Source of the DNA: a bacterium
GTDB lineage: Bacteria > Patescibacteriota > CPR2 > UBA1875 > CAIMLA01
Reading direction: 5' to 3'
Length of the DNA stretch: 64,000 nucleotides
NCBI GenBank assembly: GCA_037129835.1
Contig: JBAXUE010000005.1
Location: 13,975 to 77,974, forward strand
Position numbers and translations under genes: made by a program. How positions within the stretch are numbered: the first letter of the stretch is position 1; each line of letters opens with the position of its first letter. The notes under the pieces were generated by a model. That model saw only the letters and a list, made by a program, of their open reading frames with translations, made no database searches and had not been told where the DNA came from. Below, piece by piece: positions 8,851 through 45,900 of this stretch.

Positions 8851-10734
8851 ATGAAGCAAGAATTAAAAAAAGAACTTGATCTAATATATAATTATTTTTG
8901 GCTGGAAAATGGTCTAGTTACTTTGTTTATATTTACAATGGCTATAAAGGCAATATTACTGAACTTTATAATAACCGATAATCTACCTGTTATATTTATC
9001 GACGGAGCGGTAGGTAATATACTTATCTGTTTCTTTATCTTGTATTTACCATTATTTTTCGTGAAAAAACCAAAAAATATATTAGCGATATTATTAACAA
9101 CCGCATTAACGGTTATCTTGATTGCCGATTTGATATATTACCGATATTTCAATATATTTTTATCTATTTCTCAGTTAGCAGTCTCTAAGCAAGCTTTTAG
9201 TGTTGTGCCGGCGATAATAGATAAATTTAAAATAATAGATTTATTATTTTTCTCGGATGTGATTATTGGGACAATCTTATTATTTACGAACAAAAAGGAA
9301 AAATATATAGTAACAAGAAGTAATAGTAAACAAATGGTTATTTTGCTATTTGCAATATTGCTGACATCAAGTATTTATCTTTTAGTTCTTAATAATAATG
9401 TATATGGCTCAGATTTAAAGACTAATTATTTTTCCAGTCATTTTATGTCATTGAGGTTCGGTTATTTTGGAACTCATTTAATTGAAACATGGATGTTTCT
9501 ACAAGAAAAAGAAGTAAAAATAACTTCTAATGAGAAGAAAGAAGTAAAAGATTTTATTTCTAATAATTCAATAAAACAAAAAGACAATCAATTTACCGGT
9601 ATCGCGAAAAACAAAAATATTATTATGATTCAAGTAGAGTCACTTACGAGTGCTGTTATAGGTAAGACCGTTGAGGGACAAGAAATCACCCCCAATATCA
9701 ATAATCTTATTGATGGGTCATATTACTACTCGAATCATTATACTCAAATTGCTGCGGGGGGGACATCTGATACAGATTTGGCAGTAAATACTTCGTTATA
9801 CCCTTTACAAAAAGAGCCTGCATTCGTTTTTTATGGAAATGTAAATTATAGCTCTTTGGCTAATGATTTAGTTAATGACAATTACCATACTTATTCCTAT
9901 CATGGATATGATGCAGATTTTTGGAATAGGAAGGTTGCTTTCTTATCTCTAGGTTACGAAAATTCATTTTTCGGTAATACCTACGATAAGTTAAATATAA
10001 GTATGAACATGGGCATTAACGACAAAAATTTTTTTGATCAAACATTAATAAAAATGAAAGACCAGTTAGAACCATATTTCAGTTATATTATTACACTTTC
10101 AAGCCATACACCATATTCCATTACAAAAGAAGATAGTTATCTAAAAATAGATGAAAAAAAATATTCAAATGACGGGTATGGATATATGCAGAACATTCGT
10201 TATACTGATCAGGCAATAGGTGATTTTTTAACTAAACTTAAAAATAATGATCAATATGAAGATAGTCTGATATTATTGTATGGCGACCATGGACCGGCTA
10301 TAGATAGTCTCATTTTTGATAAGGGACGTTTAGATAAAAATAATCCAAACCTTTTTGGTGTTCCGCTTGTTGTCAAACTTCCAAATCAAAAAGTAGCAGA
10401 AGTTAATGATATCGCATCATCTCATTTAGATATTATGCCAACAGTTTTGAATTTAGTTGGTATCAAATCGAATTCCAACATGTTTGGAAGGGATTTATTC
10501 GGTTCAGAAGAACCGTGGTTTGAAGTAATGGATCATTATTTCAAAAAATCTTATATAAAAGGTGATCTAAAATTAACTATAAGTAATTCTGAAGAAAAAC
10601 AATGTTTTGTGCGTATTAACAAAACTTATCAAGGGATTAATTTAAGTAGGTGTGATTCTGTTGTTGGTAACTTATTAAATATAAGAGAAAATACTGAAAA
10701 ATTGATAAAGAATAATCTTTTTAGTCTTAAATAA
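8851..10734 (+). CDS. LTA-synthase/sulfatase family membrane protein (alkaline-phosphatase superfamily)
   Basis: Five N-terminal TM helices. Extracytoplasmic domain with SSHTPY and LLYGDHGP motifs typical of LtaS/MdoB-type enzymes. Confidence 0.65.
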   Translation: MKQELKKELDLIYNYFWLENGLVTLFIFTMAIKAILLNFIITDNLPVIFIDGAVGNILICFFILYLPLFFVKKPKNILAILLTTALTVILIADLIYYRYFNIFLSISQLAVSKQAFSVVPAIIDKFKIIDLLFFSDVIIGTILLFTNKKEKYIVTRSNSKQMVILLFAILLTSSIYLLVLNNNVYGSDLKTNYFSSHFMSLRFGYFGTHLIETWMFLQEKEVKITSNEKKEVKDFISNNSIKQKDNQFTGIAKNKNIIMIQVESLTSAVIGKTVEGQEITPNINNLIDGSYYYSNHYTQIAAGGTSDTDLAVNTSLYPLQKEPAFVFYGNVNYSSLANDLVNDNYHTYSYHGYDADFWNRKVAFLSLGYENSFFGNTYDKLNISMNMGINDKNFFDQTLIKMKDQLEPYFSYIITLSSHTPYSITKEDSYLKIDEKKYSNDGYGYMQNIRYTDQAIGDFLTKLKNNDQYEDSLILLYGDHGPAIDSLIFDKGRLDKNNPNLFGVPLVVKLPNQKVAEVNDIASSHLDIMPTVLNLVGIKSNSNMFGRDLFGSEEPWFEVMDHYFKKSYIKGDLKLTISNSEEKQCFVRINKTYQGINLSRCDSVVGNLLNIRENTEKLIKNNLFSLK

Positions 10735-10749
10735 CTATTGATTTATTCT

Positions 10750-11285
10750 CAAATATATAGTAAAATCCCATCTTGTGCGCGATAGCGCACGTATATATTT
10801 GGTGGGGTAGTTTTAACTACTAGAACGACTTAATTAATCTCGGTAACAGGGGTGGGCGCGCGCATGAAATGGGGGTGCGTGCTCATTTCTCCCTTGCGGA
10901 GATAATAGTTAAGTAAGTGGGGGTGAAAGGCCCTTCCCTGCCACCAATTTCCCTATCTGCCACTTTATGTGGTTTGTACCTGTCGCTTTTGCGACGAAAC
11001 TAGGCTTTCCTCGTCGAGAATCTCTCGACGAAAGAAAGAAGCCGTCTTCGGTTGAATGGTCGCAGGGCGATCAGAACCTAACTGACGGCGTCAGTAAGTC
11101 TCTTTCGGCTTTCGCCGGCCGCTTGAGAATCTGCTCTCTGTGTCGGCGGGTACCAGAACCCCTGGCACGTCAGTGCGCAAACGATGCAAGTATTTGCTCG
11201 CAAACCGCACACTGGCCCCAAAGGTCTTCGCTTGAGTAATCAGCGAAGGCCCGAGGGGCCTTTCGCATTAAAATATTAGATTTTT
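10750..11285. other. GC-rich hairpin-dense non-coding island; candidate structured ncRNA (unassigned)
   Basis: ~55% GC against ~35% background. Many perfect short hairpins (CGTCGAGA-atc-TCTCGACG, CTGACG-g-CGTCAG, GTCGC-tttt-GCGAC, CCAC-tttat-GTGG, GGCCC-gag-GGGCC). Only a 90-aa low-complexity ORF. No RNase P P4 or SRP consensus found. Confidence 0.3.
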
Positions 11286-11509
11286 GTCATCCTTGCGAAG
11301 GCGAGGATCTCTGAGGTAATAAGAATTAATTTGATTTTGATTATTTTCTATTATCTATTTTCTCTTGAAAAAAAATGGAGTTAAGTTCAAGAAAAATCGA
11401 ACTCCTTCGTCTCTGCACTGAATTTTCAAACAAATTGAATAATTCCTTACATTCGACGATAGTTGGGTGTGTGGCACCGAAGCGATTTTTCATAAAAAGT
11501 AAAAGAATA

Positions 11510-12223
11510 TTACCTAGGTTTTTTAATAGCCGTCGTGGTAAGATTCGGTCCTAATAAAAACCAAAATTTATGTTTAAATCCAGATGTTTGGATTTGAGTA
11601 AATCCTGTTTTCCTTAAGAGCTGTTTCATCTCTGTTTTGGTCCAAGCATGAAAGTACCTGGTAGTCGTAACGATCGTGTCTGATCTTTTCCAAGGCATAA
11701 AAAAATCTCCAAGTGGGAGCTTGTTATCTGATAAGAAAGAGGCCCGGATTTGTTTGAGATATTTCGATTTATTCCAAAAATACCAATTTGTAAAAAATAT
11801 TTGTCCTCCTGGTCTAAGTATTCTTGATATCTCTTTGAGAGCTTCTATTCGTAACTCCTTACTCGGAATGTGGTGAAGAGTAGCGATACAATAGATGACA
11901 TCAAATTGGCCGTCTTCAAAAGGAGTTTTGAGCAGATTGCCAGCCACAAAATCGCCTTTTGGATATTTATTTTTGGCGATTTTGATTAAGTCGGGGCTTA
12001 GATCAAGTCCTGTATATCGAGCACCCTTCGACGTAAGGAATTCGTAAAGACGTCCATTTCCACATCCAAGGTCTAGAACATTCATATTTTTGAGCGCAAA
12101 TGATTCCGTGGCTTTTTCTATATCCGCCCATACATAATAACGAGTCCTAGAAAAGTGTTCCGATATTAGGTTATAATCATCACGGGTCTTAGTTATTAAA
12201 TTGTGAGCATATTTTTTATTCAT
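11510..12223 (-). CDS. class I SAM-dependent methyltransferase
   Basis: VLDLGCGNGRL (motif I) and DVIYC (motif II). Confidence 0.75.
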   Translation of the reverse strand: MNKKYAHNLITKTRDDYNLISEHFSRTRYYVWADIEKATESFALKNMNVLDLGCGNGRLYEFLTSKGARYTGLDLSPDLIKIAKNKYPKGDFVAGNLLKTPFEDGQFDVIYCIATLHHIPSKELRIEALKEISRILRPGGQIFFTNWYFWNKSKYLKQIRASFLSDNKLPLGDFFMPWKRSDTIVTTTRYFHAWTKTEMKQLLRKTGFTQIQTSGFKHKFWFLLGPNLTTTAIKKPR

Positions 12224-13901
12224 GAATATTAAAGAAGAAATTATTTATAAATTATTGGAAGCAAAAGCTTGTACACGAGGCGATTTTACTCGTGTGGTCG
12301 CTTCGGTGTATAAAAATGATAACACAAGCGGGTACCATTCGAATATGGAATTACGTTCTACGTACCAAATGCTTGTTGATTCTGGCGATATCGAAATAAA
12401 CGAAAACCTAGAAAAACTACTGATCACCAAAAAGATGCGTTCGCTCTCTGGAGTCTCCGTTATCACAGTTCTAACGAAACCGTATCCTTGCCCGGGTAAC
12501 TGTATATATTGCCCTACTGTAAAGAATGTTCCAAAGAGCTATTTGCCAGATGAGCCGGCAGTAATGAGGGCAATTCTCAATGATTATGACCCCAAGAAAC
12601 AAGTAGAAACTAGGATGGAATCCCTGGTCGGGCAAGGCCATCCTGTTGAGAAGGTGGAGTTAATCATAATAGGCGGTACTTTTTCACATTTACCCAAATC
12701 TTATCAGGAAGAGTTTGCGAAAAGTTGCTTTGATGCGCTAAACGGAAGCGTGTCAAAAAATTTGGTGGAGGCCAAAAAGTTAAATGAATTATCTATATCT
12801 CGATGTGTTGGCTTAACATTGGAAACCAGGCCTGACCATATTACAAAAGAAGAGGTGAAATGGTTTCGATATCTGGGCGCTACCAGAGTTGAGTTAGGTG
12901 TCCAAACTATCTATAACAATATTCTGCAGTTAAATAATCGTGGTGAAAAAATAGAAGACACTGTTCGAGCGACGAAACTGTTAAAAGACGCTGGATTTAA
13001 AATTTGTTATCACCTGATGCCAAATCTTTATGGCTCAGATTTGAAGAAAGATAAGCAAATGTTTGTTGAAATTTTCAACAATTCAGATTTTTGTCCAGAC
13101 TACATCAAAATATATCCCTGTATGGTAATTAATGGCACTGAACTATATAAACTTTGGCAAGAAGGAAAATATACATCATATACAGATGAAGAGTTATCAG
13201 AATTAATTTGCGATATCAAAAGAGAAGTACCTTATTGGATTAGGATTATGAGAACTATCCGTGATATTCCTGCGGGTAATATAGAATCAGGCTCTAAGGT
13301 GTCCAATATGCGCCAAAACATCCTTAAACAGGCAGAGGATGAGGGCTGGAAATGTCATTGTATTCGCTGTCGTGAAATTGGCGCAGGTCCGGCTTATTCT
13401 TCTTCGTCATCCTCATTCGAGCCTGAGCGAAGAGGTTCTCAGGCCTCAGAGCCGAATGGCCTGGTCACAAACCCAGGGATCTCTGACGGTCCATCCGAAG
13501 GAGATCTTCACCTTCGTAAGGATGACAAACCGATTATGTTTACAGACAAATACGATGCCAGTGAGGGAACAGAATACTTCTTAAGTTTCGAAGATGAAAA
13601 AAGAGAAAACCTTTATTCCTTACTCAGATTGAGATTAACGAACAACCAAACTATTGATGCTATTAGAAACTGCGCGATTATTCGAGAAGTACATACATAT
13701 GGTAAGGAAGTTGAGATTGGCAAAAAGGGGGACAATCAACACAAAGGATATGGCAGAAGGTTGATTGAAGAGGCTGAGAAGATTGCTAAATCTAATGAAT
13801 ACAAACAGATAGCGGTAATATCGGGGATCGGTGCCCGCGACTATTATCGCAAATTTGGTTATGAAGTTGTAGGCGAATACATGGTTAAAGAGTTGACATA
13901 G
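12222..13901 (+). CDS. Elp3-like radical SAM / GNAT acetyltransferase (tRNA wobble-uridine modification family)
   Basis: CPGNCIYCP radical-SAM cysteine triad, CHCIRCREIG, YDASEGTEYFLSFED and QHKGYGRRLIEEAE GNAT motif. Carries an in-frame ~120-bp GC-rich element (13405..13527). Confidence 0.8.
   Translation: MNIKEEIIYKLLEAKACTRGDFTRVVASVYKNDNTSGYHSNMELRSTYQMLVDSGDIEINENLEKLLITKKMRSLSGVSVITVLTKPYPCPGNCIYCPTVKNVPKSYLPDEPAVMRAILNDYDPKKQVETRMESLVGQGHPVEKVELIIIGGTFSHLPKSYQEEFAKSCFDALNGSVSKNLVEAKKLNELSISRCVGLTLETRPDHITKEEVKWFRYLGATRVELGVQTIYNNILQLNNRGEKIEDTVRATKLLKDAGFKICYHLMPNLYGSDLKKDKQMFVEIFNNSDFCPDYIKIYPCMVINGTELYKLWQEGKYTSYTDEELSELICDIKREVPYWIRIMRTIRDIPAGNIESGSKVSNMRQNILKQAEDEGWKCHCIRCREIGAGPAYSSSSSSFEPERRGSQASEPNGLVTNPGISDGPSEGDLHLRKDDKPIMFTDKYDASEGTEYFLSFEDEKRENLYSLLRLRLTNNQTIDAIRNCAIIREVHTYGKEVEIGKKGDNQHKGYGRRLIEEAEKIAKSNEYKQIAVISGIGARDYYRKFGYEVVGEYMVKELT
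13405..13527. mobile_element. RPE-like palindromic element inserted in-frame in the Elp3-like gene
   Basis: GTCATCC...CTGGTCACAAACCCAGGGATCTCT...TTCGTAAGGATGAC with inverted termini. GC-rich, encodes an S/G/P-rich peptide. Near-identical copy inside the AlkD-like gene. Confidence 0.5.
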
Positions 13902-16328: not shown

Positions 16329-16369
16329 TACTAACTTAACACGTTAAGCCCATTACAAACTTTATTTCC

Positions 16370-16398
16370 TTGACAAGGGTATTAAGTGTTATTAAGCT
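16370..16398 (+). promoter_or_regulatory. candidate promoter TTGACA-N17-TAAGCT
   Basis: Shares ...GTTATTAAGCTTA... with the promoter of the paralogue at 17767. Confidence 0.35.
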
Positions 16399-16440
16399 TA
16401 GACTAATAACCCTCGTACTTAGTGATTTTAAAGGAGGAAA

Positions 16441-17688
16441 ATGGCTACTGAAGAAGATAAAGGAATTAAACCGCTAGAGGCTGTAGAAACAACTGATAAT
16501 ATGGAGTTCGCCCCAGCCAAAAAAGAAAAACTCAAAATACCCAAGAACTTATTTATACTGCTTCTAGTATGTGTCATCACAATACCAGGAGCATATTTAC
16601 TTTATAGATCATTTGCTTCAGTAACTCGGACGTTGGTTTGGAGCGACGAATTTGACGGTACTGCATTAAATTTAACTAATTGGAGAATGACAGCTCCTTG
16701 GGGAAATGTCGTCAATCCAAATGCAAAAGAACTAGAACACTATTATCCTAAAAATGTAACAGTTAGCGACAGTAACTTAAAATTTAATACAACTAACCTC
16801 GGAACAGATATTACTTATCCTTATGAATCAGGGGTAGTCACAACTAATTCCAAGTTCGGATATGGATACATCGAAATGAGAGCAAAGCTCCCAAAAGGAC
16901 AAGGAATCTGGCCGGCTCTATGGATGATTAATTTCGAAGACACTCACGAAATAGATATTTTCGAGATGCTTGGGAACGAACCAAATAAAGTATATATGAC
17001 ATATCATAATACCAATCAAGAAGTTTACCAATCTGAATATATTGGACCAGATTTTTCTGCTGACTATCATATTTTTGCGGTAGACTGGCAACCAACTTCA
17101 ATCACTTGGTATATAGATGGAGTCCAGAGAGGTCAATATACTGGGGCCATCAAGCCTGACCCTTTGTTTATTTGTGCAAATACTGCAGTTGGAGGTCTTT
17201 GGCCTGGTTCTCCAGATAGTACGACAGTATTCCCACAAAATTATTACATTGATTATATTAGATATTATCAACAGACTGATGCTGTCATCCCTACCCCCAC
17301 TTCTACACCTTCACCAACCGTTGCTCCCACGGCTACTCCGACCCCTACTCCTACACCAACCCCTACTATTACTCCTATTCCTACGCCCACTAAAGTTCTA
17401 ACACCCACCCCTACAATTACCCCAATGGCCGTTTCCATCTCAAGTCCCTTGAGCGGAGGAAAAGTAAGTACTACATCTCAGATTATTAAAGCAACCGTAA
17501 CAGGGCCTTATGCTGTCAAATCAGTAGTGTTCTATATAGACGGAGTAGTTAAGTCAACTGTAACTAAGTCCCCATATTCTTATACTTGGAAAACAACATC
17601 CGTTACTAGGGGAACCCATATTATCAAGGTCCAAGCTACTGATTCATTAGGCCGAACAGCCTACAAGCAGATAATAGTAACCAGATAA
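16441..17688 (+). CDS. glycoside hydrolase family 16 (beta-glucanase/laminarinase-like), membrane-anchored, PT-linker + Ig-like C-terminal domain
   Basis: HEIDIFEM matches the GH16 E-x-D-x-x-E catalytic motif. N-terminal signal-anchor. PTPTPTP linker. Confidence 0.75.
   Translation: MATEEDKGIKPLEAVETTDNMEFAPAKKEKLKIPKNLFILLLVCVITIPGAYLLYRSFASVTRTLVWSDEFDGTALNLTNWRMTAPWGNVVNPNAKELEHYYPKNVTVSDSNLKFNTTNLGTDITYPYESGVVTTNSKFGYGYIEMRAKLPKGQGIWPALWMINFEDTHEIDIFEMLGNEPNKVYMTYHNTNQEVYQSEYIGPDFSADYHIFAVDWQPTSITWYIDGVQRGQYTGAIKPDPLFICANTAVGGLWPGSPDSTTVFPQNYYIDYIRYYQQTDAVIPTPTSTPSPTVAPTATPTPTPTPTPTITPIPTPTKVLTPTPTITPMAVSISSPLSGGKVSTTSQIIKATVTGPYAVKSVVFYIDGVVKSTVTKSPYSYTWKTTSVTRGTHIIKVQATDSLGRTAYKQIIVTR
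17309..17681 (+). repeat. 373-bp direct repeat copy 1 (PT-linker + Ig-like domain coding)
   Basis: Identical by eye to 19979..20351. Confidence 0.85.
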
Positions 17689-17766
17689 TTTATCTTTGTG
17701 AGGAAGATGATACATCTTGGTCTTGATAAACGCGGCTATTTTTCCCTTTAATTAAACAAAAAATCA

Positions 17767-17795
17767 TTGACAACGATAGTGCATGTTATTAAGCT
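17767..17795 (+). promoter_or_regulatory. candidate promoter TTGACA-N17-TAAGCT
   Basis: Same architecture as 16370. Confidence 0.35.
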
Positions 17796-17835
17796 TAATC
17801 TAGTAACATGTATTATTGTATTTTGAAGGAGGACA

Positions 17836-20358
17836 ATGGCTACCAAAGAAGAAAAGGTAATTAAACCACCAAAGTCTATAGAGACAACCGACAAGATGCT
17901 CGTCTCTCCTGTCAAAAAGAAACTAATGATACCCAAAAACTTTTTAATACTGCTTCTAGTATGTGTCATCACAATACCAGGAGCATATCTACTTTATAGA
18001 TCATTTGCCTCGGTTGGGACACAAAGTACGACAGCTACTAATACGGTCGATAGTATCAATTACCCCAGAACGGTAGAATATTGGAAGGACTATACTGCAG
18101 CAGAAAGGGCCAAGGTAGACCTGCTTATTATGGAACCATATCAATATCCAACCGAAACAAATGCTGTTAGAGCGCTTAATCCAGCTACTAAGATAATGCT
18201 TTATGAAGACATTGTAGAGTTTGATTATAATGCCAATGTAGCACCAACAGAATATGTAAATGAGCGTCTAAACGAAGGTTCTACTGATTGGATATTGACT
18301 CAGGTGGGGACTACCTTATCGGCAAGTGTTGATGCCACAACGACCACTATCCCTGTGACCGAGACAACGAAACTTAACGGTACGACTACCGTAGCTTTGT
18401 TCAAAATTGGTGAGCTTGCATTAGTCGATCACGAATTAATGAAAATCACAGCAGTTGGCACTAATACAATAACAGTCCAAAGAGGAGTTGTTAAAAAGGC
18501 GGCTGTACATGCAGCTGGTGTTCGAACAGCGGCCTGTGTAACTTTTTGGCCAGGCAGTGTAGTAACCGATATGACCAAAGCTAGTTTAGCTGTAGATCTC
18601 GGTACCGGCTTCGGACCAGAAACATATTACCAGTGGCGGGCAAGAGTGACGGGGACTAGAGCGGTTACAGAAAAATGGGACGGTGTTTATATGGATAGGG
18701 CAGATGGCAATGAGTCGTGGGTAATATCAACTGGTTATGCTAGAAGCTTTGATCAGGCTCGTACCAATACTTTTGTATCAGACAAATATGCTGCTTTTAA
18801 CACCTCTTGGAATGATGGTGAGATGCTTTATTATAAAGCCCTTAGAGCCAAGGTTGGAGTAGATATGCCGATTTTTGGTAACAGGGCTATCACAGGCTCC
18901 GCGGATATAAACGGTAGTTTAATGGAGGGATTTCCAGATAGTCAGATAAGTTCAAAGTCATGGCATGATATGATTGTTGGTCCCAACCTAGTCGCGGGTA
19001 GAGATGTTACTGGGACTTCTGTAATAGCTCCATATTTTAATTGGGTGAAAAATTCAAGAGATCCAAAATTGAATATAATCAATACTTACGAATATGAAGA
19101 CGGTACCAGCACTACAAATCCTTTTATTGATCCTAATTTTAAACGAAATTATCAGAAAATGAGATTTGGGCTGACAACTACCCTTTTGGGAAATGGCTAC
19201 TATGGTCACTTCTCGGGGATAACGGCTAAAAGCAACGGCTTTGCTTGGTTTGATGAATATGACAATGCTGGAGCGGGCAAAGGGTATCTTGGCCAGCCGA
19301 TTGGCGATGCTTATCAAGTTATCCCATCTCTTACGACTCCAGATCTAGTTAACGGAACTGGCACTTTTAATACACAAGCGCAACTTGATAGTTGGGAGCT
19401 GTATAACCGAGCTGGCTATGCATCGACAAAAACCCTCGATTCCGGCGCGGCTAAAATAAATATTACCGCAGCGGCTGGAAGCTTTAACGGAGTAGGTTTT
19501 TCATACCAGCCTTTTCCCATTACTGTTGGAGTAGAATATACTTTAACGTTTAGAGCAAAGGCTGATAAAGTTGTTAATATATATGCTTCTGCAGAGAAGA
19601 ATAATCCCTGGGGCTTCTTAGCAGAGTATGATGATCTTGGTCTTACTACAGATTGGCAGACTTTCAATATCCCTGTTAAGGCAATTGATTCAAGCACCAC
19701 TGGGACTATGAATTTTCTGCTTGGTGGAACCACTGGCACTATCTGGCTCGACGACGTCAAGCTTCAGGAAGGAAACCGTGAAGTCTACCGTCGTGACTTT
19801 ACTAACGGCATCTCTCTAGTAAATCCCACCGAATCTGCCGTCACTATACCTCTCGGTGGTAATTTCCGTAAAATCAAAGGGACTCAAGTTCCATCTATTA
19901 ATGACGGTTCTATAGTATCGTCAGTTACTCTTCAACCAAAAGATGGGATAATCCTTCTGCGAGAATCTGTCCCTATATCTTCACCAACCGTTGCTCCCAC
20001 GGCTACTCCGACCCCTACTCCTACACCAACCCCTACTATTACTCCTATTCCTACGCCCACTAAAGTTCTAACACCCACCCCTACAATTACCCCAATGGCC
20101 GTTTCCATCTCAAGTCCCTTGAGCGGAGGAAAAGTAAGTACTACATCTCAGATTATTAAAGCAACCGTAACAGGGCCTTATGCTGTCAAATCAGTAGTGT
20201 TCTATATAGACGGAGTAGTTAAGTCAACTGTAACTAAGTCCCCATATTCTTATACTTGGAAAACAACATCCGTTACTAGGGGAACCCATATTATCAAGGT
20301 CCAAGCTACTGATTCATTAGGCCGAACAGCCTACAAGCAGATAATAGTAACGAAGTAG
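17836..20358 (+). CDS. membrane-anchored putative glycoside hydrolase with CBM4/9-like carbohydrate-binding module, PT-linker and Ig-like C-terminus
   Basis: N-terminus nearly identical to the GH16 paralogue. Central TIM-barrel-like region (WDGVYMDRADG). CBM-like segment (WQTFNIPVKA...GTIWLDDVKLQEG). Hydrolase family not assignable by eye. Confidence 0.55.
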   Translation: MATKEEKVIKPPKSIETTDKMLVSPVKKKLMIPKNFLILLLVCVITIPGAYLLYRSFASVGTQSTTATNTVDSINYPRTVEYWKDYTAAERAKVDLLIMEPYQYPTETNAVRALNPATKIMLYEDIVEFDYNANVAPTEYVNERLNEGSTDWILTQVGTTLSASVDATTTTIPVTETTKLNGTTTVALFKIGELALVDHELMKITAVGTNTITVQRGVVKKAAVHAAGVRTAACVTFWPGSVVTDMTKASLAVDLGTGFGPETYYQWRARVTGTRAVTEKWDGVYMDRADGNESWVISTGYARSFDQARTNTFVSDKYAAFNTSWNDGEMLYYKALRAKVGVDMPIFGNRAITGSADINGSLMEGFPDSQISSKSWHDMIVGPNLVAGRDVTGTSVIAPYFNWVKNSRDPKLNIINTYEYEDGTSTTNPFIDPNFKRNYQKMRFGLTTTLLGNGYYGHFSGITAKSNGFAWFDEYDNAGAGKGYLGQPIGDAYQVIPSLTTPDLVNGTGTFNTQAQLDSWELYNRAGYASTKTLDSGAAKINITAAAGSFNGVGFSYQPFPITVGVEYTLTFRAKADKVVNIYASAEKNNPWGFLAEYDDLGLTTDWQTFNIPVKAIDSSTTGTMNFLLGGTTGTIWLDDVKLQEGNREVYRRDFTNGISLVNPTESAVTIPLGGNFRKIKGTQVPSINDGSIVSSVTLQPKDGIILLRESVPISSPTVAPTATPTPTPTPTPTITPIPTPTKVLTPTPTITPMAVSISSPLSGGKVSTTSQIIKATVTGPYAVKSVVFYIDGVVKSTVTKSPYSYTWKTTSVTRGTHIIKVQATDSLGRTAYKQIIVTK
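19979..20351 (+). repeat. 373-bp direct repeat copy 2
   Basis: Identical to 17309..17681. Confidence 0.85.
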
Positions 20359-27257: not shown

Positions 27258-28123
27258 CTTATGACGAAGTTATGCTTCGATTAGACAAACTAGCTAGTCA
27301 TGACCCAAAGGATTTGGCGGGCATGGCTCGTTTTGGCATCAACGTTGATAAAGCTTGGGTAATTAGTATGCCGAAGTTAAGAATATTAGCGAAAGAGATA
27401 CTCTCACATTACAAAATACAAAAAATTGATAATAATGTGTCATCCCTGGTCGCAAACCCAGGGATCTCTCCCGTACCATCCGACTTATCCAGCGTAGCTT
27501 TAGCGAAGATGAAAAGAGATCCTCACTTTCGTAAGGATGACACAATAAAGATCCAAGAGCTGCATACCCTCGCTCTAGAAGTTTGGGATTCCGGTATTCA
27601 CGAAGCTAGAATATTAGCTGGTTTGATTGATGATCCAAAGATGGTAACTGGGGAACAAATGGAGAAGTGGGTTCTAGGCTTTGATAGCTGGGATGTCTGC
27701 GACCAGACCTGCGGTAATTTGTTTGATAGGACAGAATTTGCCATAAAAAAAGCACACGAATGGTCAAAAAGATCCGAAGAATTTGTAAAAAGAGCAGGTT
27801 TTGTCTTAATGGCTGGACTTGCCGTTCACGACAAAAAGCTTGAAGACAACGTCTTTATAGAATTTTTAGATATTATAAAACGTGAGTCTGGTGATAAGCG
27901 TAATTTTGTACGCAAGGCTGTGAATTGGGCTCTACGGAGTATTGGTAAATCGAGGAACAAATATTTGTATGAAAAATCCATAAGGGTAGCTGAGGAGATC
28001 CTCGGTCAAGCCAAGGATGACAGCTTGGTATGGAGTGGCACAGAAATAAAGGCTATGAATTTCATCGCCGGTGATGCAAAAAGAGAACTAGAAAAAGATT
28101 ATATAAAGAATCGTTTTCTATAA
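27254..28123 (+). CDS. DNA alkylation repair enzyme (AlkD/AlkC-like HEAT-repeat glycosylase family)
   Basis: HEARILAG, WDVCDQ and VRKAVNWALRS motifs resemble the DNA_alkylation family. Carries an in-frame GC-rich element at 27437..27542. Confidence 0.55.
   Translation: MTYDEVMLRLDKLASHDPKDLAGMARFGINVDKAWVISMPKLRILAKEILSHYKIQKIDNNVSSLVANPGISPVPSDLSSVALAKMKRDPHFRKDDTIKIQELHTLALEVWDSGIHEARILAGLIDDPKMVTGEQMEKWVLGFDSWDVCDQTCGNLFDRTEFAIKKAHEWSKRSEEFVKRAGFVLMAGLAVHDKKLEDNVFIEFLDIIKRESGDKRNFVRKAVNWALRSIGKSRNKYLYEKSIRVAEEILGQAKDDSLVWSGTEIKAMNFIAGDAKRELEKDYIKNRFL
27437..27542. mobile_element. RPE-like palindromic element inserted in-frame in the AlkD-like gene
   Basis: TGTCATCC-CTGGTCGCAAACCCAGGGATCTCT...TTCGTAAGGATGACA. 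The core is near-identical to the Elp3 copy. Both are translated in the same frame (LVxNPGIS...H-RKDD). Confidence 0.5.
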
Positions 28124-40379: not shown

Positions 40380-40390
40380 CTGGAGACCCT

Positions 40391-40472
40391 GTCATTCCTG
40401 GTCGCAAGCCAGGAATCCACCCATATAAATATTTTATTTGAAATAGATTCCTGGCTTGCGACCAGGAATGAC
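40391..40472. repeat. perfect 27-bp inverted repeat pair (GTCATTCCTGGTCGCAAGCCAGGAATC ... GATTCCTGGCTTGCGACCAGGAATGAC) in the pheS-pheT spacer
   Basis: Direct reading. Each arm is itself a hairpin. Same GTCATYCC family as the in-gene elements. Confidence 0.6.
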
Positions 40473-40487
40473 AAAGAGGAAAAAGAA

Positions 40488-44697: not shown

Positions 44698-44779
44698 GAT
44701 AAGTAATTATATATGCATACCATTAGGTATTATTATTGTCATATCTTTACAGGATCTGCTCTCCTAGGGCCCAATAATT

Positions 44780-44880
44780 TATTGTTTGAAGTCCCGCAAC
44801 TGCCGGATCGAGAACTACTTCCCGCGTCATTTCTCAATCTAGTTGAGGACAGGCTCTAAACTAGATTTAGCTTGCCTGCG
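44780..44880. repeat. repeat unit R1 (ATTGTTTGAAGTCCCGCAACTGCCGGATCGAGAACTAC...CCTCAATCTAGTTGAGG...)
   Basis: About 90% identical to R2 at 45328. Confidence 0.6.
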
Positions 44881-45327
44881 GTAAGCAGGGATCCATTTCG
44901 TAATACTTTGATACTTTTATCTATAGTTATTCTGTATTTACCACTTTTTTAGTAAAAGTGGTGCAAAAAGCCCGAACTGTCGGATTCTCACAGAGTCAGT
45001 AACTCACTTATTCATGTTTAGTAAAATTAACTCCCCGGCTATTGCCGGTTCAAACAAAATTATTACCAAAATATTTATAAGTAAGCTACTTCGCTTCTCG
45101 AACCGATTGTTCGGATAGAAACCGCGTAAACTCCCACGAATTCGGGTATCGTGCGTCGTCTATAACCCCATTGTCATCCCTGGACGACTCGTCCATCGTA
45201 GCCTTGGTGAAGTTGGAAGTGGAGAGATCTAACACAATATTTACCGTCATCCTTGGCTTGCCCGAGGATCTCTCGCACCTCCCCGTCATTTCAAACTCAA
45301 TTTGGAGTCCGTATCCACACCTTTTTT

Positions 45328-45418
45328 ATTGTTCGAAGTCCGGCAACTGCCGGATAGAGAACTACTCCCCGCGTCATTCCTCAATCTAGTTGAGGACAGG
45401 CTCTAAACTTGATTTAGG
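45328..45418. repeat. repeat unit R2 (ATTGTTCGAAGTCCGGCAACTGCCGGATAGAGAACTAC...CCTCAATCTAGTTGAGGACAGGCTCTAAACT)
   Basis: Contains two hairpins (TCCGGCA-ac-TGCCGGA; CCTCAA-tctag-TTGAGG). Confidence 0.6.
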
Positions 45419-45428
45419 ATCTCTTTCA

Positions 45429-45455
45429 TATCGTTCGAATGCCAATGAGAACTAT
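45429..45455. repeat. ATCGTTCGAA-TGCCAA-TGAGAACTATA motif copy
   Basis: Same ATYGTTCGAA...GAGAACTA family. Confidence 0.5.
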
Positions 45456-45742
45456 AGATACACTTACTTATTTCCGTTCATTTCTTCTTGATAAGAAACG
45501 AACCAAACCTGCCTGCCGCAGGCGGGGAATCAAGAAAAATCCTCCTACGCACCAGAGCTTCGGACGGACAGGTCGAACTCCTTCTACTCGGCTCGTAATT
45601 TTGTTACCAATAATTACTCGACCTCGTAGATAGTCGGAGCTGTGAGCCCAAAGCGATTTTTCGTTAGGGATATACACTATCAAACCATATTTTCGAAACC
45701 CCCACGATCACCCCCTGGCAGTAAACAGAGGATCTCCTTTTT

Positions 45743-45780
45743 ATTGTTCGAAGTCCGGCGACTGGCGGAAGGAGAACTAA
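45743..45780. repeat. repeat unit R3 (partial): ATTGTTCGAAGTCCGGCGACTGGCGGAAGGAGAACTAA
   Basis: Third copy of the R1/R2 5' module. Confidence 0.55.
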
Positions 45781-45900
45781 TTCCCCACCTTTTCCCTTTC
45801 AGACAAGCTGTAAAAAGTAGATATATTATTAAAGGGAGTTTGCAATATCGACAAAAAATTTGCAACAATGGTAAACCTTGTAAAATGCGATGTTTTGTAC

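Follow-up and report, generated by a model that had tools for sequence, protein, structure and literature searches.

A GC-rich island beside a Trm9-like/Elp3 gene pair: a candidate structured RNA with a tRNA-shaped 5' module in a CPR/Patescibacteria-like bacterium

On balance, we lean towards the view that approximately 10773-11285 (+) of the window, the whole 64,000-nucleotide stretch analysed here, is an independent non-coding RNA gene. It would be a diverged member of an undescribed family, known so far only from one CPR/Patescibacteria-like group and always beside a Trm9-like methyltransferase gene and an Elp3 gene. A structured RNA family new to Rfam is well supported in relatives, and the window element is likely to be orthologous to it, mainly by synteny and architecture. 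An earlier reading, made from the letters alone (the sequence-only reading), had proposed a structured RNA candidate of open class for this island. Our results support a structured RNA of undescribed class: the island has no Rfam or ARAGORN match, its fold is significant, and a conserved, covarying RNA occupies the same gap in relatives. Absent from that reading were the cloverleaf-shaped 5' third ending in ACCA, the promoter-like site that orients the element, and a REP-like palindrome at 11283-11311.

The GC content was 0.49-0.55 across 10800-11299 and 0.27-0.33 in the flanking coding sequence (200-nt windows), which confirms that the island is GC-rich; we put it at 10790-11275, with 49-55% GC against flanks of 27-33%. 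The value of about 35% GC that had been given for the genome roughly suits the local flanks, but the entire 64-kb window has 39.7% GC. The sole ORF, 10967-11239 (90 aa), had been judged not credible, and a Pfam search with it gave no match. The island lies, as had been described, between convergent genes: an LtaS-like gene (+) ends at 10734 and a class I methyltransferase gene (-) ends at 11510.

The MFE of 10790-11275 (+) was -203.7 kcal/mol, against -155.9 +/- 5.4 kcal/mol for dinucleotide shuffles (z = -8.9), and none of 100 shuffles matched the native + strand. The reverse strand gave z = -8.1. The + strand MFE was 20 kcal/mol better than that of the - strand, and 21 kcal/mol was lost when the + structure was mirrored onto the - strand. 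The + orientation is favoured because of the fold energy, because the sole sigma-70-like site is on +, and because the syntenic RNAs of relatives all lie on the same strand. This promoter-like site, TTGATT-17 nt-TAAAAT at 10738-10766 (+), is the only one in 10400-11700; it is a consensus match only, with a predicted start near 10773. Relatives carry TTGACA-17-TATAAT-type sites at the equivalent position.

The predicted unit opens with a leader hairpin, GUGCGC-GAUA-GCGCAC (GTGCGCGATAGCGCAC), which is paired in the MFE structure of 10773-11285. It had been noticed before, at 10783; its true position is 10775-10790 (+). A terminator scan flagged this hairpin, yet it is located at the 5' end of the unit. 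The next part is a tRNA-shaped module with a four-way junction (10801-10946, +), whose MFE alone was -61.9 kcal/mol (z = -4.5). The fold contains an acceptor-like stem GGUGG/CCACC, with an alternative register GGUGGGG/CCCUGCC then A-CCA, a D-like hairpin (10806-10821, +), a closed 'anticodon' arm of 87 nt with a 16-bp G.U-rich helix (10828-10914, +), and a T-like hairpin (10919-10935, +). The 3' end of the module reads ...GCCACCA, and the three GGGGTG boxes listed earlier are present at approximately 10850, 10873 and 10920. The module therefore shows the cloverleaf, the acceptor stem and the 3' NCCA of a tRNA (in the MFE structure, ending ...CCACCA), but it has no D-loop GG, its T-like loop UGAAAGG is without UUC, and its anticodon position is the 87-nt hairpin, not a 7-nt loop with U33. 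Because the D-loop GG and the T-loop UUC are absent, the module is tRNA-shaped, yet not a tRNA. Tried as a tRNA, 10801-10946 failed both RF00005 and ARAGORN, and ARAGORN in standard, relaxed and intron modes found no tRNA in the window.

Downstream of the module, 10956-10995 (+) consists of hairpin CCAC-UUUAU-GUGG, UUUGUACCU, and hairpin GUCGC-UUUU-GCGAC, and is a candidate counterpart of the family core. Both hairpins were known from the sequence-only reading and were recovered at 10960-10972 and 10982-10995. At 11003-11044 (+), a hairpin GGCUU...AAGCC, seen in the sequence and the MFE structure, surrounds the perfect stem CGUCGAGA-AUC-UCUCGACG; the previously reported CGTCGAGA-atc-TCTCGACG lies at 11012-11030. 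Two folds compete at 11033-11119 (+). The MFE prefers small hairpins, GCCG-UCUU-CGGU plus CUGACG-G-CGUCAG, the second of which corresponds to the earlier CTGACG-g-CGTCAG (11082-11094). The other fold is a three-tier hairpin, GCCGUC / GGUU / UGGUC-loop-GAUCA / AACC / GACGGC, which resembles the central domain of the relatives L012, L096 and L098. Model R1, which represents that central domain and fails to generalise even to L097, gave a weak 7.2 bits (E ~0.03) on 11033-11119 with filters off. A first 'AGAACC' motif lies inside this segment. A second, 'CCA-GAACC', lies in a hairpin with GGGUACCAGAACCCCUGG at 11139-11170 (+; sequence and fold); matched by eye, it is common to the window, L012 and L096 (GGGCACCAGAACCUCC) and L098 (GCACCAUAGAACCUC).

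A hairpin GUGCG...CGCAC with an inner hairpin (11173-11210, +; MFE) is followed by a long terminal hairpin, GGCCCC / GGUCUUCGCU, loop, AGCGAAGGCC / GGGGCC, with an A/U-rich tail (11214-11285, +; MFE). This is probably the 3' end or terminator of the unit; a simple terminator scan did not call it, as a clean T run is lacking. It overlaps with an alternative hairpin, GCGAAGGCCC-GAG-GGGCCUUUCGC, and the GCGAAGGCCC-gag-GGGCCTTTCGC hairpin described before was located at 11243-11266. A two-tier terminal hairpin ending ...GGGCCUUU(U)C(GC) also occurs in L012, L096, L097, L017 and L098; that of the window is two-tier and ends GGGGCCUUUCGC, as in L097. The strain variant L002 overlaps the element by 125 nt and differs from the window only at 11212 and 11169-11170. 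These substitutions were dropped as evidence of compensation, since the positions opposite them lie past the end of the L002 contig.

The window derives from an uncultured bacterium of lake metagenomes; among named organisms, its BipA is best matched in Patescibacteria, CPR2 and WS5. Related contigs, from species with BipA 83-88% identical or methyltransferase 64-67% identical, keep the gene order DinP - gap - methyltransferase(-) - Elp3-like - BipA. The window departs from this order by an LtaS-like gene that separates DinP from the island; the nearest homologue of the LtaS-like protein is 37% identical and was of no use for synteny. About 15 related CPR/Patescibacteria-like contigs (L011, L012, L096-L099, L017, L020, L021, L024-L027, L102 and L103) carry a + strand unit in the same gap. 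The gap is non-coding in all relatives of this group and holds a promoter, a leader, a tRNA or tRNA-like gene, and a GC-rich sequence of 250-560 nt that closes with a long hairpin. The window element has the same location, between DinP and the Trm9-like/Elp3 genes and on the Elp3 strand, with its own promoter-like site and a long terminal hairpin. More distant loci were obtained by scanning metagenomes with Elp3, and a separate Elp3 scan of genome contigs returned only archaeal Elp3 loci of 36-41% identity.

The methyltransferase gene is Trm9-like (11510-12223, -) and divergent to a bacterial Elp3 gene (12222-13901, +; radical SAM + GNAT). Two homologues of the methyltransferase are named 'tRNA (uracil-5-)-methyltransferase TRM9' in JGI. 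More than 50 metagenome loci contain the two genes as a pair, the more distant ones being flanked by U34-anticodon tRNAs (Arg-UCU, Gly-UCC, Pro-UGG and Leu-UAA). The Trm9-like/Elp3 pair suggests that these bacteria have a wobble-uridine pathway of the Elongator type. Where the island meets the methyltransferase region, the junction is polymorphic in the population, because strain L003 encodes a 100% identical methyltransferase protein but carries another gene (C-terminus ...KKKGFTVYGGH-stop; L003 4418-4642) directly left of 11350. Another contig stops at window position 11348 (the L004 and L016 contigs end near 11349).

The evidence for the family comes from the downstream RNA of relatives. 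Between L012 and L096, this downstream block is 79% identical and an upstream block (Block A) 77%, and their DinP, Elp3 and BipA genes match at 77-80% identity; no alignment was obtained for the tRNA-like piece or for the methyltransferase gene. The downstream block is non-coding because L012 and L096 differ in it by indels of 1, 2 and 8 nt. A small-protein reading was rejected on the same ground, as the indels break the frame. RNAalifold on L012, L096 and L098 gave the three-tier central hairpin with compensatory changes. On L020, L024, L102 and L103 it gave four helices, with double changes in 15 of the 33 pairs. The covariance model R2 was made from the helices of these four loci and widened to R3. 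Scores with R2/R3 were 70 bits for L096, 51 for L017, 35 for L012, 16 for L097, 14 for L099 and 12.5 for L098, and accepted R3 members ranged from 12 to 117 bits. Since R2/R3 recover L096, L017, L012 and L097-L099, the sub-groups form one family. In a 7-sequence alignment, 97.8% of cells were paired, against 34-47% in slid controls, and double changes occurred in 21 pairs, against 1-4; these pair counts are inflated, since the alignment had been fitted to the model.

The conserved core consists of hairpin H1 (ACGCC-N4-GGCGU), single-stranded UGCACC(N)UAUA and a second hairpin, H2, and C-rich loops recur downstream of it in relatives. Helix P-x is absent in L096, and P-x and P-y are both absent in L012. 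A pattern scan of viral contigs with ACGCC-N3-6-GGCGTTGCACC gave at least 120 matches, approximately the chance estimate for 16 specified bases. R3 was then applied to 80 of those loci: a single locus gave 22.6 bits (E 0.005), and no locus scored as high as L012, L017 and L096. Block A is a second conserved non-coding RNA of 550-650 nt directly downstream of DinP (L012 6480-7110; L096 2357-3000; L097 1475-2045; L098 1545-2075; L017 1270-1800). It has its own promoter and a terminal multi-branch hairpin, and no ORF or Rfam match was found in it. The window is without Block A, and its LtaS-like gene occupies that position.

Covariation in relatives had been suggested as a check on the island. 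It is strong in the syntenic RNAs of relatives, but the window copy itself has no significant match to them. Searches of the island with nhmmer and blastn against all fetched loci returned identical strains only (L001 and L006 being identical), and models R1, R2 and R3 gave at most ~7 bits on the window. With filters off, the best R3 match in the island was 10956-10995 (+), at 5.0 bits (E ~0.09; model positions 79-119), which is not significant alone. This match immediately follows the tRNA-shaped module on its 3' side, an arrangement also seen in L012, L097, L098 and L099. Helices P-x and P-y, upstream of H1, were not found in the window with R2/R3. It also speaks against our reading of the island that the tRNA-shaped part is fast-evolving and broken in L096, and may be dispensable, and that strain L003 has a different gene left of 11350, so that the element is not fixed at the junction.

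The modules of relatives range widely in their likeness to tRNA. As a tRNA, the L011 module scored 52.7 bits (63-nt insert), that of L012 43.6 bits (43-nt insert), that of L020 59.4 bits (6-nt loop), and that of L102 51 bits (loop without U33). In L021 and L024 the body is of the Ser type and the variable arm is oversized (35-38 nt). The tRNA model did not detect the modules of L096-L099, L017 and L103, and in L096 the T-arm is broken. Because the apparent anticodons differ among syntenic loci (GCA, GUC, GAC, GGC, CUA, or 2-nt calls), these loci have kept no common decoding identity. When folded by themselves, the L011, L012, L098 and L099 modules form a cloverleaf with a long closed anticodon arm, as does 10801-10946. 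The window thus has the 5' tRNA-shaped module, the elongated closed anticodon arm and the encoded CCA. The tRNA-like genes L011 7223-7357 and L020 2491-2565 contain a G3.U70 pair, and L020 also has A73; the anticodon loops of both are unusable. G3.U70 is the alanine identity element. The modules of L011, L020, L021 and L024 are candidate tRNA mimics, non-decoding yet chargeable. At this one syntenic site the modules grade from canonical tRNA into a cloverleaf that is no longer recognisable, a natural case of a tRNA gene re-used as a structural module.

The main rival, which we consider unlikely, is that the locus is a decayed tRNA gene cluster beside the Elp3/Trm9 pair, that is, functionless pseudo-tRNAs and hairpin debris. 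Ordinary tRNA genes do occur beside the same gene pair in more distant loci. Relatives span canonical tRNAs with inserts (52.7 and 43.6 bits) to undetected modules, and their anticodon loops have 4, 6 or a non-canonical 7 nt or are replaced by hairpins. A second T-arm-acceptor-CCA unit lies within the downstream RNA of L012 and L096, the window element is unalignable to relatives, and the junction at 11350 is polymorphic between strains. However, neutral debris in surroundings of 27-33% GC should have lost both its 50-55% GC and a fold of z = -9, and the promoter and terminal hairpin are retained in all relatives. The covariation is found in helices unlike those of tRNA, and the downstream RNA of L012 and L096 is conserved like housekeeping genes, whereas the tRNA-like piece is not.

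It is quite improbable that the island is cis-acting, either as a structured 3' UTR of the LtaS-like gene or as a bidirectional terminator or antisense region for the convergent methyltransferase gene. The island lies between two convergent genes and begins 4 nt past the LtaS stop codon, and the terminal hairpin could end both transcripts. Relatives, however, have the RNA without an LtaS gene, following DinP or the upstream RNA and with its own strong promoter. In addition, 500 nt and a cloverleaf far exceed the needs of a terminator.

It is highly improbable that the island encodes one of the universal RNAs (RNase P RNA, tmRNA or 6S RNA) in an unrecognised, strongly divergent form. Aberrant RNAs are frequent in CPR lineages. 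By eye, there are RNase P likenesses in GGGGGUGAAAGG, and in UUGAAUGG...AUCAGAACC, which stand in RNase P order, and the 3' end of the - strand reads ...CCCCACCA. However, the RNase P, tmRNA, SRP, 6S, tRNA, T-box and intron models had no match at E<=10 in the island, and the RNase P, tmRNA, 6S and SRP models had none in 7 relatives. The ARAGORN tmRNA search found none down to 80% of threshold, and only implausible permuted calls at 70%. The sequence has neither a tag frame nor a canonical T-loop, a P4 partner strand is missing at the required distance, and the motif positions are not conserved among relatives.

Among the checks proposed by the sequence-only reading, the Rfam and ARAGORN scans were negative: no Rfam 15 family reached its gathering score on either strand of the window, and ARAGORN gave no tRNA or tmRNA there. 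A permissive Rfam scan of 10500-11600 (E<=10) gave chance-level matches only, and Rfam scans of the window and 25 related loci (gathering and E-value) gave tRNA matches only. Several specific candidates were tried and rejected. RNase P RNA was judged by a P4 helix with the conserved strands GGAAAGUCC and ACAGAA-CCGGCUUA, or by detection with Rfam; types A, B, archaeal and T had no match at E<=10, and the P4 strand GGAAAGUCC is absent. Readings by hand (GGGUGAAAGG; UGAAUG...CAGAACC) had no P4 partner, and their motif order is not conserved in relatives. For tmRNA, there was no Rfam or ARAGORN match, canonical T-arm or tag reading frame; on the - strand, the T-arm is non-canonical, the acceptor has just 4 bp, and there is no tag frame. 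A riboswitch or cis leader was dropped, as the next downstream gene is convergent and riboswitch and T-box models had no match in the island.

A REP-like cluster or a decayed mobile-element end, the fallbacks of the sequence-only reading, are very improbable: the left junction does differ between strains, and the island is directly adjoined by a true REP-like palindrome (11283-11311), but no part of 10790-11275 recurs elsewhere in the 64 kb, as copies of a repeat would, it holds only two direct repeats, of 11-12 nt, blastn against phage and plasmid collections found no match, terminal repeats and mobility genes are absent, and the locus is syntenic across many species.

The palindrome at 11283-11311 lies just outside the element and has at least five relatives in the window. 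These REP-like imperfect palindromes (TGTCATCC..TGG ... CCA..GGATCTC) are found at 11283-11311, 13460-13529, 27438-27483, 27995-28021, 40390-40473 and 45246-45272. Two REP-like units lie in frame inside the Elp3-like ORF 12222-13901 and encode a low-complexity insert (...SEPNGLVTNPGISDGPSEGDLHLRKDDKP...). The insert segment is unaligned in the strain variants L002-L004, and the Elp3 of related species is 36-64 aa shorter. In-frame insertions of palindromic elements are known from Rickettsia, and the units in the window Elp3 ORF resemble them in this respect. Other repeats were also observed. The AT-rich 11397-11491, between the island and the methyltransferase stop, has a paralogue of 70-74% identity at 45573-45662, 34 kb off, which adjoins a cluster of 48-93-nt direct repeats (44776-45785). 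Two adjacent genes in 16441-20358 share a 300-nt segment of 99% identity (17303-17602 / 19973-20272), and further repeats of 77-89% identity occur upstream (16367-16622 / 17764-18014). From the sequence, 16441-20358 looks like a recent partial duplication.

Returning to the reading of the island as an RNA gene, several known systems are similar in part. With tRNA (RF00005) and insert-bearing tRNA genes, the window shares the four-way cloverleaf and the acceptor-like stem ending A-CCA, and its site is syntenic with relatives still scoring as tRNA (L011, L012, L020 and L102). The inserts are too short to be group I introns, and no bulge-helix-bulge motif was seen by eye in L012. ROOL and GOLLD, two Rfam families of large 'ornate' bacterial RNAs that often lie beside tRNA genes, likewise have hundreds of nt of conserved, covarying non-coding structure adjoining tRNA-type genes. 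They differ in motifs and host lineage, and our element has no Rfam match to either, nor was a phage association found. YrlA, a bacterial Y RNA (RF02553), is also an RNA containing a tRNA mimic. The YrlA gene is found with rsr, and the free ends of its RNA are in the stem on the opposite side from the tRNA-like elbow. At our locus the acceptor end with its CCA is open, there is no rsr gene in the neighbourhood, and RF02553 gave no match in the window. The RF02553 match over the L102 tRNA was sub-threshold (20 bits against a gathering score of 69).

For the proposed mechanism, the closest analogy is mascRNA, a tRNA-like processing module at the 3' end of MALAT1 (PMC8457004). The likeness, which concerns the proposed mechanism only, is a non-decoding tRNA-shaped element co-transcribed with a larger structured non-coding RNA; the difference is that MALAT1 is eukaryotic and its tRNA-like element lies 3' of the long RNA, whereas here it lies 5'. 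By analogy with mascRNA-type systems (PMC8457004), RNase P and the tRNA 3' enzymes would set the RNA ends here.

Transcription would start from approximately 10773, with the short leader first. The tRNA-shaped module would follow, having kept the acceptor, D, T and CCA layout and lost a usable anticodon loop, and then about 330 nt of stable hairpins would close with the long terminal hairpin. The module is probably not for decoding; it may be a handle for the tRNA-processing machinery, with a processing or stabilising role. Because the decoding features are lost and the shape and CCA are kept, it probably recruits RNase P and tRNA 3'-end enzymes. RNase P would act at the 5' side of the module, with 3' trimming or CCA recognition at the 3' side, and this processing would set and stabilise the ends of the downstream structured RNA. 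The downstream RNA would be the trans-acting functional part. For the C-rich loops of relatives, pairing with G-rich ribosome-binding sites or protein binding are options.

A broader and quite doubtful reading places the locus in a CPR-wide RNA system, where non-decoding tRNA mimics would share transcripts with large structured RNAs next to the wobble-uridine modification genes (Elp3 and Trm9-like). The mimics, whose anticodon loops are ruined, would either carry aminoacyl groups for non-ribosomal purposes or act on the tRNA-modification enzymes as regulators or decoys. Anticodon-independent synthetase features are kept in some mimics, namely G3.U70 (L011 and L020) and the Ser-type long variable arm (L021 and L024). 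If this reading were true, the Block A RNA (550-650 nt) would be a further partner. Generally, the genomes of CPR/Patescibacteria are tiny, and hardly any of their non-coding RNAs have been characterised. For annotation, an island of high GC in an AT-rich uncultured genome can flag an RNA gene that is invisible to current models. A conserved transcription unit of up to ~1.2 kb that has no Rfam match and is kept beside tRNA-modification genes across a group of species points to lineage-specific RNA biology.
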